A DNA stretch of 64,000 bases. It comes from Scyliorhinus canicula (Eukaryota). The stretch lies in NCBI RefSeq assembly GCF_902713615.1, contig NC_052154.1:15935784-15999783 (forward strand), in the 5' to 3' direction. The notes beneath the pieces are model-generated. The model was given only the letters and a program-made list of their open reading frames with translations, did no database searches and was not told where the DNA came from. Of this stretch, positions 608 through 45,960 are shown one piece after another; position 1 is the stretch's first letter, and every line of letters starts with the position of its first letter. A program made the translations under genes and the position numbers.

Positions 608-1906
608 TGATGGAATCATCAATTCACGAGACACATGCTTTAAGATATGAACAGTGGTTTTAATCTACTTACTACAAAGCCAGCCTGTTACCCGTTGAAC
701 TCTCGATGAACTGCAGGCTGGCTCTGGACACGGTTATTTATACAGCAGTCATAGAATCATAGAATTTACAGTGCAGAAGGAGGCCATTCAGCCCATCGAG
801 TCTGCACCGGCTCTTGGAAAGAGCACCCTACCCAACGTCAACAACCCCACCCTATCCCCATAACCCAGTAACCCCACCCAACACTAAGGGCAATTTTGGA
901 CTCTAAGGGCAATTTATCATGGCCAATCCACCTAACCTGCACATCTTTGGACTGTGGGAGGAAACTGGAGCACCCGGAGGAAACCTACGCACACACGGGG
1001 AGGATGTGCAGACTCCGCACAGACAGTGACCCAAGCCGGAATCAAACCTGGGACCCTGGAGCTGTGAAGCGATTGCGCTATCCACAATGCTACCGTGCTG
1101 CCCGTTCTCACATTTTGACGCAGACACAGAAACTCCCAAGTCATGTTAATAAAGAACCTGAATATTTTTGACAAAATTAAGAGTTTGCTGTAATGAACTT
1201 TAATATAGCCAAGATTATGTCGCTGCTTAGGCTAACCACAATATTACACATTAAATCCGGGATGGATAACTGAGAACTTAAACTGTTATAAATCTGCAGA
1301 TGTAGGTCAGATAGAACACAAGTTGTGGAAACAGCAAACAATTTATACAAAGAGTTCTGTTGTATGCTGGCGATTGCTGGCTCTCTCACTGATACAGTGA
1401 GATGTAACTAGAATAACGTACAACAGAAAGGCCTGGAGTGACTCCACAGTCTGAGGTCCAGAATTGTACAAATTATTTCAACAGAAACATAATACAAAGC
1501 GTGACAAATCATCAGACCAACATCGTCTGCACACAAATTACAGATCTCTTGGCACTAACCTGCATCAAACACATTAACATTATATTCTCCGGGCATGATT
1601 GAAGAAGATTGCTACTCTTTATCCATGCAGCTGAACTATCTGCCCAAGTTATTTATTCCCATTTTAGTGCTCAGTGAAATCTGTTGTACCTTTGGGATTC
1701 AACTGAAAAATCCTGTGCTTCTGAACACCAGGCCACTAAAAGAAGCTATCAAGCAGTCAAGGGGGAGGAGTCGTGGGCAGAGCCAAGGGTGGAGCCCTGT
1801 ACAAACTGCTGAGCATTCCCAGAGCTACTCCCCCTAGTGGTCGGATAACGCTACTGCACTTACAATGGTATTGGTAAATACAGTGTGAATTACTACGTTA
1901 CATTCA
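608..1906 (-). repeat. 3' LTR of the Gypsy element, interrupted by a 1000-bp insertion (752-1751)
   Basis: 608-751 and 1760-1906 align collinearly to 5873-6163; AGCAGTCA is duplicated at 744-751 and 1752-1759. Confidence 0.92.
752..1102 (-). mobile_element. HE1/V-SINE-like tRNA SINE with CR1-type tail
   Basis: Head gggcagcacggtagc with a B-box-like ggtttgattcc, core tgtgcaggttaggtggattggcc, tail ctgcactgtaaattctatgattcta; nearly identical to 9479-9823 and 43452-43790. Confidence 0.9.
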
Positions 1907-1968: not shown

Positions 1969-3261
1969 TCAAACTGTCGGCTGTGATCTGCGGAGCACGG
2001 GGGTTGCAGCCTCTTGCGGTGGCTGGATGGGTGTTGTGTGCTGGGGTACAATGGCGGACTCCAGGGAGGGTTGTGTCCGAGCTTCATGCTCTTCTGGTTC
2101 GGCCGGGGACTGGGGGCTGGCCGGTACGGGTGCACGGAACTGGTGGAGCGAGCTCGTGGTCTCAGGAGCGCGAGGGGGCGGCAGCATGGGGTGTAGGGTG
2201 AGGGATCCTTCTGTGGGGGTAGAGGGGGCGCTGGATCCAGCGGGTGCCAGATCCTGGAGGGTTACTGTGTCCTGGCGGCCGTCAGGGAACTCAACGAAGG
2301 CGTACTGGGGGTTGGAGTGGAGCAGGCGCACCTTCTCAACAAGGGGGTCGGTTTTGTGTGCCCTGACGTGCTTCCTCAGGAGTACAGGGCCCGGTGGCCT
2401 CAGCCATGCCGGAAGCGAGACCCCCGTGGTAGTGCCCCTGGAAAAAATGAAGAGCCTCTCGTGAGGGGTCTGATTGGTCGCTGTGCATAAGAGGGACCTA
2501 ATAGCATGGAGCGCTTCTGGGAGGACTTCCTGCCACTGGGAGACATGGAGCTTTCTAGACCGGAGGGTCAGTAGGACGGTCTTCCAGACCGTCGCGTTCT
2601 CCCTCTCCACCTGCCCGTTCCCCCTGGGGTTGTAGCTGGTAGTCCTGCTCGAGGCAATGCCCTTGTCGAGCAGGTACTGACGCAGCTCGTCACTCATGAA
2701 GGACGAACCCCGGTCGCTGTGCACGTAGCTGGGGAAACCAAACAGGGTGAAGATGCTATGCAGGGCCCTAATGACTGTGTGGGAGGTCATGTCGGGGCAC
2801 GGGATAGCAAATGGGAAACGGGAGAACTCATCTACGACGTTTAGAAAGTAAACATTCTTGTTAGTTGAGGGGAGTGGCCCTTTGAAATCAATCGCGAGGC
2901 GTTCAAAGGGCCTAGAAGCCTTGACCAGGTGGGCCCTGTCTGGTCTATAGAAGTGCGGTTTGCACTCCGCACAGATCGGGCAGTCCCTGGTGACCGCTTT
3001 TACCTCCTCATTGGAGAAAGGCAGGTTTCGGGCTCTGATGTAGTGGGCGAGCCGGGTGACCCCCGGGTGGCAGAGGTCGCTGTGAATGACTTTCAGTCTG
3101 TCAATCTGCGCGCTGGCGCATGTCCCGCGAGATAGGGCATCCGGAGGCTCGTTGAGCTTCCCGGGCCAATACTTAATATCATAGCTGTAGGTGGAGAGTT
3201 CGATCCTCCACCGAAGAATTTTATCATTTTTTATTTTGCCCCTTTGCGAGTTATCAAACAT
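1969..3261 (-). pseudogene. Gypsy integrase (with end of RNase H)
   Basis: HHCC zinc finger (HSDLCHPG...CPIC) and DDE core (IDFKGP, HSDRG, GQVER). Confidence 0.93.
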
Positions 3262-3366
3262 AAAGGCAACTGATCTTTCGTCGGTGATGAAGGTGAACCT
3301 CCTACCTGCGAGTTAGTGCCTCCAGTAACGAATAGCCTCCACAATGGCTTGTGCTTCTTTCTCGAC

Positions 3367-4536
3367 TTAGGAGTGTCGGAGTTCTGAAGCGGGGAGGGTA
3401 CGGGAGAAAAATGCGACTGGTTTCCCTGCCTGATTTAGTGTGGCTGCTAGAGCTACCTCTGAGGCGTCGCTCTCAACCTGGAATGGAGTGGATTCATCCA
3501 CCGCCCGCATGGCCGCTTTGGCGATGTCCTCCTTGATGCAGTCGAAGGCCTGGCGTGCCTCAGCTGACAGGGGAAATCGTGTGGCCTTAAAGAGTGGGCG
3601 GGCTTTGTCCGCATATTGAGGGACCCACTGGGCGTAGTAGAAGAAGCCCAAGCACCGTTTGAGGGCTTTGGGGCAATGGGGGAGGGGAAGTTCTAAGAGG
3701 GGGCGCATACGGTCCGGGTCTGGGCCCAGGACTCCGTTTTCCACGACGTAGCCGAGGATGGCCAGTCTGTTTGTGCGGAAAACGCATTTCTCTTTGTTGT
3801 AGGTGATGTTTAATTTCTGTGCCGTCAGGAAAAAACGGTGGAGGTTGGCGTCGTGGTCCTGCTGGTCATAGCCGCAGATGGTGACATTGTCCAAGTACGG
3901 AAACGTGGCCCGCAGCCCGTACTGGTCCACCATTCGGTCCATTGCTCGTTGGAACACCGAGACCCCATTAGTGACGCCGAAGGGGACCCGGAGGAAATAG
4001 AAGAGGCGGCCATCGGCCTTGAATGCCGTGTAATGGCGGTCCTCCAGGCGGATTGGGAGCTGGTGGTATGCAGACTTCAGATCCACCGTGGAAAAGAGCC
4101 GATACTGGGCGATCTGATTTACAATGTCTGCAATCCTGGGGAGGGGATACGCGTCAAGGAGCGTAAATCTATTTATGGTCTGACTATAGTCGACAACCAT
4201 GCAGAATTTTTCCCCGGTCTTAACGACCACCACCTGAGCTCTCCAGGGACTATTGCTGATCTCTATAATCCCCTCACTGAGAAGCCTTCGGACCTCTGAT
4301 CTGATAAATACCCTATGCTGCAGGCTGTATCGCCTGCTACGAGTGGCTACGGGTTTACAGTCCTTTGTGAGATTGGCGAAGAGAGGAGGGGGGGAGATTC
4401 GCAGTGTGGCGAGGCTGCAGATAGTGAGTGGGGGCAGGGGCCCACCGAAGCTGAGGGTGAGGCTCTTAAGGTTACACTGAATATCTAGGCCTAATAAGAG
4501 TGGCGCGCAGAGGTCGGGCAAAATGTAGAGTTGCAA
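3367..4536 (-). pseudogene. Gypsy reverse transcriptase / RNase H
   Basis: SPWRAQVVVV, DLKSAYHQ, VPFGVTNG, YLDN, then DAS...PVAFFSRTL; premature stop at 3367. Confidence 0.93.
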
Positions 4537-4546
4537 TTTTGAGTAG

Positions 4547-5839
4547 CTAGCGCCTCGGATTGTGTGTCGCGGCGGTGCGCCCCTGGATCTGTATAGAATG
4601 GGAGCCTGAAACGAGCGAGATAGTTTGCCACACTGGGAAAACGGGGAGCGAACAGCGTCTTACCAGGTCTGGGTGTATGAAGCTCTCAGTGCTCCCGGAG
4701 TCAAAAAGGCATGGCGTGTTGTACCCGTTGATTTGGACCTCTGCCATTGAATTTCGCAGATGCTTCGGGCGTGATTGATCCAGGGTGACTGCGCCGAGTT
4801 GCGGGCCGCGTGATGAGCGCCCGGGGAGGTCGTACTCTTCCGATGAATTGTCCGAGCGTGGAGATGCAGGTAGGGCCCGTGGATCGCACGTGGCGGGCGG
4901 CGAGGTAGATGGCGTCCAAGATGGCGGCCCCCATGAGTCGCATGTGGCTGCCCGTGTGGTGGAGGTTTGCCAAGATGGCGCCCCCCATGGATCGCACGTG
5001 GCGGGAAGGAGCGGGGTTGGGGCATAGGCCGCAGCGTTTCGGGCCTGCGGGTGTGGGGAGCGATTACTTCGTGCCGCTGGGGAGTTGGAAGCTGGGGCCC
5101 TTTTTGCGAGGCACACTCTCACGTAGTGGCCTTTCCGCCCGCAGCTGCTGCAGGTCACGTTGCGGGCCGGGCAGTGCTGCCGCGGGTGCTGATTCTGGCC
5201 GCAGAAATGGCAGGCTGGAGCAGCCTGGTGGCTGGGCGGCCGCGTGGCACAGGCCTGGGGAGTCGCTGGTCGGGGGCCCATGATTGGGTCGCGGAGTCCG
5301 CGGGGAACGAGGTGAGGCTGCGGAAGGAGACCTCCATCGTGGTAGCAGTTTCCGCAGTTGTTTCTAAGTCTTGGGCCCCCTTTTCCAGCAGTCGTTGGTG
5401 CACATAATTAGACCTGAGGCCCGCTACAAAAACGTTGCATACAGCAAGTTCTATATGTTCAGCCGCGGTAACCGCTTTATAGTTACAGTCATTATTTAGA
5501 TTATTGAGCTCTCTTAAAAATTCAGCGAGTGATTCTGTAGGCCGCTGGCGGCGATTCGTGAACACGTGGCATGCGTAAACTTCGTTAATGGGCCTTACAT
5601 ACATCTTATCGAGTATCACTAGCGCTGCAGTATTTGAACCAGCCGAGTTTAGTTGCGTAGATTCTGTGGCTCACCCTCGCGTGCAGTGCTTAACTTAACT
5701 TCTGTTCCTCTGTTGTTTCGGCTTTGCTCGCTTCTGCCAGGTAGGCCTCAAAGCACCACAGCCAGTGGGAGAAGATTTATTTTGCCTCTGCATCCTGTGG
5801 GTCGAGTTCCAGGCGTCCAGACTTGAGGGCTGATTCCAT
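4547..5839 (-). pseudogene. Gypsy gag (two CCHC knuckles) and aspartic protease, disrupted
   Basis: ATG at 5839 gives MESALKSGRLELDPQDAEAK then a stop; CHFCGQNQHPRQHC and CSSCGRKGHYVRVC knuckles; protease motif LFDSGS; frameshifts between ORF pieces. Confidence 0.88.
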
Positions 5840-5872: not shown

Positions 5873-6168
5873 TGATGGAACCATCAATTCACGAGACACG
5901 TGCTTTAAGATATGAACAGTGGTTTTAATCTACTTACGACACAGCCAGCCTGTTACCCGTTAAACTCTCGATGAACTGCAGGCTGGCTCTGGACACGGTT
6001 ATTTATACAGCAGTCAAGGGAGAGGAGTCGTGGGCGGAGCCAAGGGTGGTGCCCTGTACAAACTCCTGAGCATTCCCAGAGCTGCTCCCCCTAGTGATCG
6101 GATAATGCTACTGCGCTTACAATGGTATTGGTAAGTACAGTGTGAATTACTACGTTACATTCACCACA
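5873..6168 (-). repeat. 5' LTR of the Gypsy element (296 bp)
   Basis: TG..CA termini; minus-strand TATAAATA near 6000-6007 and ATTAAA at 5924-5929. Confidence 0.92.
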
Positions 6169-6332
6169 CTCCCATAACCCCAAGCATTAATCATGACCAA
6201 TCCACCTAACCTGCACATCTTCGGACTGTGGGAGGAAACTAGAGCACCTGGTGGAAACCCACGCAGGCACGGGGAGAACGTGCAAACTGTACAGTCACTC
6301 AAGGACGGAATCAACCCAGGTCCCTGGCACTG
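6169..6332 (-). mobile_element. tRNA-derived SINE, head/body half, continuation of 460-607
   Basis: ccataacccc...ccaatccacctaacctgcacatc...ggaatcaacccaggtccctgg. Confidence 0.8.
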
Positions 6333-6419
6333 TTCCTCCATATGGTCATGAATATTAACAGTTGGTGAAAAATGTCCAGGTTTAAGAAATCACATTTCAT
6401 CCTTAGGGTGTTGTCCAGT

Positions 6420-6767
6420 CATAGAATTTTCATAGCAAGGAAAGAGCCCCTCGACCCATCATGTCCGCACCGGCCATCAAGCACCTATTTACTCTAATCC
6501 CATTTTTCAGCACTTGGCCGGTAGCTTTGTGTGCTACAGCATTTCAAATGCCGTCTATACACTTAAATGCTGTGAAGGTTCCCGCATCTACCATCCTTTC
6601 AGGCAGTGAGTTCCAGATTCCAACCTCCTTCTGGGTGAATCACTCAAATCCCCTGTAAACCTCCTGCCCCTTACCTTAAATCTGTGCCCCCTGGTTATTG
6701 ACTCCACCGGTAAGGGAAAAAATTCCTTCCTATCCACCCCAATCTATGCCACTCATAATCTTATACT
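6420..6767 (-). mobile_element. CR1 LINE 3' fragment
   Basis: CR1 tail plus ORF2 C-terminus on the minus strand; closely similar to 110-382. Confidence 0.7.
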
Positions 6768-43790: not shown

Positions 43791-45099
43791 TGATGGGGCA
43801 GAGAATGCTACGAATGTTTCGTTTGTCCACCTGCAAAAACAAAATAGGGAAAATTGTCCAATAAAAGCAAAATATTGCAGATACCGGAAATGTAAACAGA
43901 AAATGCTGAGAAAGTCAGCAGGCCAGACAGCATCTGTGAAGAGAGGGAAACGGGAGTCTCCAGTCATTGTGACCACCTTCCACAGAAGGGCAAGGGCCCT
44001 CTGCCAGACACAAACACAGCCCAGTGTTTCCATAACGCTGTTCAATGTGCAACCAGGAAATGGAAACGTGTTCAGTTTGAGAAAAAGAGGAGAATGGGTC
44101 AGCATTTCCCCCTCTCTCTGAAATTGGTCAATTGCAACTCCACCATCCTCCAACCCCCACCAGGTTTCACGTTTGGGGGGGGGGGGGGGGGTTGAATTGG
44201 CAGGTCTTTTATCCCGCTCTGCATATTTGGAACCGCCTCTCCCTCTGGCGGGCTGAAGTTTGAATGCACGGCCGCTCCCGCACGTACACACCCTAAACTT
44301 GTCCCTGACTCATTGGCTGCACTCTGAACGCGGAGAATGCGGACGAAGCACTGGGTTGAATGAGGTGAGCGAGACGATTGAGACATGTGTGTGTCTCTGT
44401 TGTTTCCGCAAAGGTTTGCTCGCCCTCCCCCTGGCTGACAAGGCTGGATGTGAACGTGCCAGGCTGCACGATTCCCCCAGTGGGCGGTGCAATGCCCTCT
44501 TGGGCTGGCTTCACCCACACTCAAGAGGCACCAGCGCAGAAATTCGGAAGTTCGACCCCGTCCACAACTAGGGGGGGGGGGGGGGGGGTTGGACAAACCC
44601 ATGTTTGGTTAATATGGCCCATTAGGAGCGTCAATTGAACAAAAACAGTCACTGATGCAATTGTGATATAATATCAGATACATCGATGCAACGATGCTTC
44701 AAATCCCAGCTCCCCACGCCGGGGGGGAATCATTTCCCTTCTGTCCAAACCATGGCCAGACTTCAACTTTAAACTGTGCAGGGCGATTGTACATCCACAT
44801 TGTTCAGGGCCCCCTGTAGGGTGCAAACTCCGGCACAGACTCACTGACTGATTAACATTTCACACATTCCCCCTGGATTTCAGAGGCAGTTTATTTTTTA
44901 TATCTGAAATGAATCCTGATGTCAGAAGGTGTTTTTTGGGCTAGATTAGCGGGAGCCCCCATCAATCCCGGGAGCGTTAGAATGAGCCTCTATTATTCTG
45001 GCGTTGCAATGTTGAATTGTGAGCGATTGTATTAACCGGGATTACAGTGTGATCGCCCGGAGCAGCCTTTACTCTTAGGCAGCGGCTGTCTCTCTCTCT

Positions 45100-45960
45100 G
45101 TCTCTCCCCTTCTCCCTCCTGTCTGTCTACCCCTCTCCCTCCTGTCTGTCTACCCCTCTCCCTCCTGTCTGTCTACCCCTCTCCCTCCTGTCTGTCTACC
45201 CCTCTCCCTCCTGTTTGTCTCTCCCCCTCTCCCTCCTGTCTGTCTACCCCTCTTCCCCCTGTCTGTCTACCCCTCGCCATCCTGTCTGTCTACCCCTCTC
45301 CCTCCTGTCTGTCTACCCCTCTCCCCCCTGTCTGTCTACCCCTCTCCATCCTGTCTGTCTACCCCTCTCCCTCCTGTCTGTCTACCCCTCTCCCTCCTCT
45401 CTGTCTACCCCTCTCCCTCCTGTCTGTCTACCCCTCTCCATCCTCCCTGTCTACCCCTCTCCCTCCTGTCTGTCTACCCCTCTCCCTCCTGTCTGCCTAC
45501 CCCTCTCCCTCCTGTCTGTCTACCCCTCTCCCTCCTGTCTGTCTACCCCTCTCCCTCCTGTCTGTCTACCCCTCTCCCTCCTGTCTGTCTACCCCTCTCC
45601 CTCCTGTCTGTCTCTCCCCCTCTCCCTCCTGTCTGTCTACCCCTCTCCATCCTGTCTGTCTACCCCTCTCCCTCCTGTCTGTCTACCCCTCTCCCCCCTG
45701 TCTGTCTCTCCCCCTCTCCCTCCTGTCTGTCTACCCCTCTTCCCCCTGTCTGTCTACCCCTCTCCATCCTGTCTGTCCATCCCACTCTCCCCGTCTACCC
45801 CACTCCCCCTCTCTGTCTACCCATCTCCCTCCTGTCTGTCTACTCCTCTCCCTCCTCTCTGTCTACCCCTCTCCCTCCTCTCTGTCTACCCCTCTCCCTC
45901 CTGTCTGTCTATCCCACTCCCCCTCTGTCTCCGCCACTCCCGCCTCTCTGTCTATCCCAT
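45100..45960. repeat. 23-bp pyrimidine-rich minisatellite (CCCCTCTCCCTCCTGTCTGTCTA)n, degenerating to about 46270
   Basis: Directly visible tandem array of more than 30 units with point variants. Confidence 0.95.

Follow-up and report, generated by a model that had tools for sequence, protein, structure and literature searches.

An LTR in the genome of the catshark Scyliorhinus canicula is interrupted by a unit that joins a SINE to DNA foreign to the LTR element, which raises the question of where this DNA came from and by what route it came to move together with the SINE. The locus lies in a window of 64,000 nucleotides, the whole stretch of DNA analysed here, to which all unprefixed coordinates refer. 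A preliminary description, made from the letters of the window, had proposed that the SINE carried upstream host DNA with it in a 5′ transduction.

The insertion, its host LTR and the empty site

The insert occupies positions 752-1751 (1,000 bp) and interrupts a Gypsy-type element on C9 within its left LTR. This element lies on the minus strand, with its 3′ LTR on the left and an intact 5′ LTR on the right (5873-6168), and its internal region (1969-5670) encodes protease, RT, RNase H and integrase in Gypsy-type order and in separate frames. Alignment of the two pieces of the left LTR with the intact LTR gave a 96.5% match between 608-751 and 5873-6016 and a 94.3% match between 1752-1908 and 6009-6165. 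The 8 bp by which both halves overlap on the intact LTR are AGCAGTCA, the sequence that stands doubled around the insert at 744-751, within the first LTR piece, and at 1752-1759, so that the alignment confirms the insertion with duplicated flanks that had been described. The target site is present once, at 6009-6016, in the paired LTR, which the preliminary description had taken as the pre-insertion allele, and likewise once in 11 of 11 other LTR copies of the family that were examined; the empty state is therefore ancestral. It is these empty-site LTRs that establish the target-site duplication (TSD) of the insert, since 8-9-mer matches within 1.5 kb of the SINE head are common among 35 control SINE copies and a k-mer alone would be insufficient. 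The TSD measures 5-8 bp, because three of the eight bases of its left copy (749-751) can also be read as SINE tail repeat. Retroposition mediated by the LTR element itself, with a template switch within that element, was ruled out, as a TSD of its own flanks the insert, which only one of the two LTRs contains.

Read on the minus strand, the insert ends in a full-length, young tRNA-type SINE with a CR1-like stem-loop tail (752-1103). The SINE is complete and has its tail at the left TSD copy, as had been described, although its head ends at 1103 rather than 1102. A- and B-box-like motifs were seen by eye, ARAGORN found no tRNA gene in the SINE, and we take the element to resemble HE1/V-SINE. 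A stem-loop is predicted for the tail (z −2.3), with a fold as good in 3 of 200 shuffled sequences. The tail can also be aligned with 3′-terminal sequences of CR1-like elements, taken as the DNA 325-378 nt after a CR1 ORF2 motif, and scored above all 30 shuffles for six of eight of them. No CR1 with a near-identical tail was present among the 8 + 7 motif sites examined.

The donor locus and its transcript

A genome search with 1103-1751 returned at least two matches (counts from these searches are lower bounds), the window itself and a locus on C2 (G000:C2:19547234-19547878, 98%). The preliminary description had presented 1103-1751 as unlike any repeat in the window, and no other match occurs there; the part derived from the donor is, however, 1104-1747 (644 bp), and the four bases at 1748-1751, which had been counted as unique DNA, are absent from donor and target alike. 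With these two genome matches, the reading of the unique part as a multicopy TE was ruled out. At C2 the same full-length SINE directly adjoins the unique DNA (C2:19546898-19547878), with no LTR match in 40 kb around it. A donor of this kind, with the unique DNA directly upstream of the same SINE and free of LTR flanks, was what the proposed transduction called for, and two independent insertions were ruled out by the uninterrupted junction of SINE and unique DNA at the donor. The C2 SINE is flanked on both sides by its own 5-bp TSD, GTTCT, of which the copy has the head-side half only (1104-1108). The SINE was therefore at C2 first, and SINE and upstream flank were copied together later. The insert accordingly has the hallmarks of a 5′ transduction, as its TSD encloses the SINE plus upstream host DNA and the source locus has both, with a TSD of its own.

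The unique part of the copy (1104-1747, minus strand) aligns to the donor without gaps and with 10 differences in 645 positions (635/645 identical), and the SINE part differs from that of the donor at 10 positions and by 2 indels. An assembly chimera is unlikely, given these 20 substitutions and 2 indels. The two LTRs of the host element differ at 14 of 288 positions, as against 10 of 645 in the unique part (p = 0.006). This difference agrees with an insertion younger than the host LTR element, with the qualification that constraint on the donor UTR could lower the 10/645.

The SINE part appears to have the same origin. Copy and donor have a C at 836 in common, a base carried by none of 29 SINE copies selected with the copy and by none of eight random copies covering the site (four of the eight are gapped there). 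That C836 is private to the pair, as a first count of 0/31 had suggested, was ruled out, since 7 of 24 copies selected with the donor carry it. At 902 the copy has T, as do 22 of the 29 copy-selected SINEs, and the donor has A; T902 was found in none of 14 random copies from 400 kb of arbitrary genome. This 400 kb contained 15 similar SINE copies, so the family is very large and searches in it enrich recurrent changes. The simplest account of T902 in the copy would be a recurrent change combined with search bias, a mosaic being possible. With one derived SINE change in common and about six private changes each, the two sequences fit a SINE part that descends from the donor, copied soon after the donor's own insertion.

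The donor region is sampled by 20 of 24 listed sequencing runs, which contain 82-98% of its sampled words and none of which is recorded as RNA. Contigs of four runs, aligned to the unique donor DNA and the sequence upstream of it, reveal two introns with CT..AC ends, each spliced out in three of the four runs, which indicates GT-AG splicing on the minus strand. The introns are followed by a long last exon that spans the entire donor segment. The exons encode an in-frame C-terminus followed by a stop, which identifies the gene by homology as TRIP11/GMAP-210, with the C-terminus in the last exon (97% to a catshark protein); a search with the TRIP11 C-terminus gave 918 hits. The upstream 1,286 bp of this last exon have one genome match (single copy), and an ab initio exon scan of the donor region missed the true last exons. 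The copied DNA is distal 3′ UTR that starts ~1,070 nt after the TRIP11 stop, with the SINE behind it in sense. Transcription and strand, which the preliminary description had named as the checks to make on a donor, thus agree with the proposed transduction of upstream host DNA by a SINE, which is supported by the C2 donor and by its sense transcription as the TRIP11 3′ UTR in spliced contigs.

Transcription from the upstream host promoter into the SINE, on the sense strand of the latter, is covered up to the SINE head and probably continues beyond it; contigs of three of the four runs overhang the first base of the head by 27-62 letters, the sequence of which was not displayed. An ATTAAA is situated ~100 nt ahead of the SINE, and the contig of the fourth run ends ~15 nt beyond this motif with 7 letters unaligned (L038:4316-4336). 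This end weakly hints at a proximal poly(A) site ~85 nt ahead of the SINE, and many TRIP11 transcripts may end before they reach the SINE. Another AATAAA lies ~380 nt past the SINE tail at the donor. Where the contigs of the four runs cover the donor segment they contain no alternative bases, so the transcripts match C2 and not the copy.

How the unit was copied

Based on the ends, strand and source of the insert, we propose, with a probability of roughly 0.85, that it is a 5′-truncated retrocopy of the distal 3′ UTR of TRIP11 together with its embedded SINE, made by CR1-type TPRT initiated at the tail of the SINE in a Pol II transcript. The 3′ end of the copy is the terminal repeat of the SINE (752-765), which measures 17 nt including the microhomology versus 10 nt at the donor and ranges from 8 to 20 nt among 35 SINE copies. 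Positions 752-755 are absent from the donor, and the copy contains neither poly(A) nor downstream flank of the donor. The 3′ junction has a 3-nt microhomology (749-751), and the 5′ junction has four extra bases (1748-1751) beyond 1747, where the donor match ends. A short TSD (5-8 bp) with 3 nt of 3′ microhomology and 4 extra nt at the 5′ end is characteristic of CR1/L2-type TPRT, as is a 3′ end at a stem-loop and short tandem repeat shared with a LINE. By contrast, the copy lacks the poly(A) and the 13-15 bp TSD of a classical L1 processed pseudogene. According to the sections of the published accounts consulted, TSDs of L2/CR1 elements peak at 3-5 bp (1-8 bp for ZfL2-1), compared with 13-15 bp for L1, and copies of ZfL2-2 have 3′ microhomology in ~80% and 5′ extra bases in ~40-50% of cases (PMC4245944, PMC2666801). 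In similar excerpts, stem-loop recognition is described as strict in L2/CR1 elements (PMC4176376), and slippage on terminal repeats is reported (PMC3747384).

The proposed course of events would begin at C2, where the young SINE landed in sense behind the TRIP11 stop, generating a 5-bp TSD of its own, and where TRIP11 transcripts run up to the head of the SINE and presumably through it. A CR1 ORF2 protein would then have bound the stem-loop of the tail in trans and nicked the LTR on C9. Priming would have taken place on the 3-nt microhomology with the tail repeat, probably at an internal position in the RNA, with slippage lengthening the repeat; we consider internal priming at the tail at least as likely as a transcript that ended at the SINE tail. 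Synthesis would have halted after ~995 nt, with ~1,070 nt still separating it from the coding sequence, and joining at the 5′ side would have left the four extra bases and completed the 5-8 bp TSD. As the copy falls within one exon and spans no intron, it is its ends and strand that point to an RNA intermediate. Copying may have occurred soon after the SINE arrived, since copy and donor share a single derived SINE change and have similar numbers of private ones.

The reverse transcriptase could instead have started on the free Pol III RNA of a SINE elsewhere in the genome and switched to the TRIP11 transcript through SINE homology, in which case the tail-side part of the SINE would not be the donor's. 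Such a template switch would suit the combination of C836 and T902 in the copy, which none of 53 other copies has. Joined mRNA and SINE sequences also have a precedent in this genome. An RPL21 retrocopy on C1 (L133:1449-2383; G000:C1, ~240,234,800-240,235,750), with six fully spliced exons and a parent on C14, has a short poly(A) that runs straight into the head of a full-length SINE missing from the parent. It has a candidate 6-bp TSD, AACCTC, around the whole unit and 10 extra bases at its 5′ end, and looks like an mRNA-SINE chimera made by template switching; a later insertion of the SINE into the poly(A) is possible. In the TRIP11 copy, however, position 836, where a derived base is shared with the donor, is closer to the tail than 902, whereas a foreign tail would predict the reverse arrangement, and at the SINE head the copy reproduces the genomic junction of the donor, with neither poly(A) nor added bases. 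We therefore regard a template switch as an improbable origin of the TRIP11 copy.

We also considered an origin at the DNA level, in which 1 kb of C2 DNA served as the template for repair of a staggered break in the LTR, without an RNA step. End-joining repair also yields short duplications, microhomology and extra bases, so the junctions would be compatible with such a repair, as would the lack of a spanned intron. However, it gives no reason why the copy should end only a few bases from the SINE 3′ end, why the tail-side half of the donor TSD is absent and repeat units foreign to the donor are gained, and why the segment comes from an expressed last exon with a sense SINE, and we consider it very improbable. 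That a relaxed L1/Tx1-type enzyme copied a fragment of TRIP11 RNA ending by chance at the SINE is scarcely credible: a relaxed route has also operated in this genome, as one of two older intronless RPL21 copies (L135 on G000:C22; the other is L136 on G000:C3) ends in poly(A) without a SINE, but the TRIP11 copy has no poly(A), ends in a CR1-type repeat and has a TSD of 5-8 bp, compared with a peak of 13-15 bp given for the L1 clade in the section consulted of PMC4245944.

Frequency, known parallels and consequences

Transduction of upstream DNA by a SINE tail is rare in this genome. Neither shared 5′ flanks nor adjacent poly(A) occurred at any of 82 further SINE heads, no donor emerged for either of two displaced-TSD candidates tested among the control SINEs (L025, L029), and neither check revealed a second event of the type. 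A search for the SLU7 family returned parent exons only, and one for Sds3, which was too insensitive, gave a single weak match.

Several known systems share features with the TRIP11 insertion, as far as the portions of their descriptions consulted allow a comparison. One parallel is 5′ transduction from upstream promoters, known for SVA including SVA_F1/MAST2 (PMC12593883, PMC3287187). The TRIP11 insertion resembles it in that upstream host sequence is co-mobilised, transcription comes from an upstream host promoter, and the TSD encloses host DNA and element. SVA is transcribed by Pol II and mobilised by relaxed L1 via poly(A), whereas the TRIP11 case involves a tRNA-type SINE that lacks poly(A) and has a CR1-like stem-loop tail, with the 3′ UTR of a host gene as cargo; stringent tail recognition would take the place of the poly(A) route. 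Crocodilian SINEU-2 copies likewise have extra 5′ flank in a non-mammalian vertebrate, attributed to 5′ transduction or template jump (PMC4494074). Those extensions, in the excerpt consulted, are snRNA- or transposon-derived and common to several copies, whereas the TRIP11 insert occurs once, its protein-coding donor is named, and empty sites serve as a control. Processed pseudogenes (PMC5470649, in part) are similar as 5′-truncated sense copies of the 3′ end of a gene within a TSD, but the TRIP11 copy ends at an internal SINE tail and not at poly(A).

For sharks and rays, a published table pairs the HE1 V-SINE with the HER1 LINE (PMC3747384). The SINE studied here, putatively HE1-like, is likewise of the tRNA type, occurs in a shark and has a tail reminiscent of CR1-like 3′ termini; unlike for the HE1/HER1 pair, the exact partner LINE was not found among the CR1 motif sites examined. 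Parts of two further reports provided SINE context (PMC5499810, PMC6887750). A search of the full-text literature, conducted on titles and the starts of abstracts and mostly outside subscription journals, returned no description of host 3′ UTRs retroposed via an embedded CR1-tailed SINE.

Sequence-specific recognition is held to restrict CR1-type enzymes to RNAs with the 3′ tail of their own elements and to limit which RNAs are copied, and this is the usual account of the scarcity of retrogenes in CR1-dominated genomes (PMC5470649, section consulted). In cartilaginous fishes, 14,081 retrocopies have been credited to CR1 or Tx1 in a 2026 preprint (10.64898/2026.06.26.734816), the consulted part of which contains no mechanism. 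The TRIP11 insertion suggests that a host transcript becomes a CR1 substrate once a SINE has inserted into its 3′ UTR, which would offer a way around the stringent specificity. As a natural case the locus is unusually clear, in that donor, empty site, strand and junctions can all be read, and it leads to the prediction of retrocopies that end in SINE tails and come from genes with sense UTR SINEs. More tentatively, and with rather less than even confidence, we suggest that shark SINE tails act as general licences by which stringent CR1 enzymes retropose host mRNAs, through either a sense SINE in the 3′ UTR, as in TRIP11, or a SINE joined to a poly(A) mRNA, as in the RPL21 copy on C1. If this were true, it would explain part of the many retrocopies of cartilaginous fishes, and the parents of retrocopies would be predictable from their UTR SINE content.

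The TRIP11 copy itself carries no coding sequence and is probably inert. A TATA-like motif, seen by eye, adjoins it in the 3′ LTR, and the genome search with 1103-1751 found no progeny copies of the insert. Some further observations concern the host element and the rest of the window. The Gypsy-type element seemingly sits inside an older SINE, with the tail half and the head half on either side (465-607 and 6169-6333), and CR1-like 3′ fragments that are 90% identical flank it at 108-386 and 6490-6767. Five of the 11 LTR family copies (L051, L053, L054, L056 and L060) have a 4-bp flank match shifted at one of the LTR ends by a single additional base, which may reflect an asymmetric end or a boundary set wrongly. 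Farther along, a pyrimidine-rich tandem array of ~40 units of 23 bp occupies 45027-45950.
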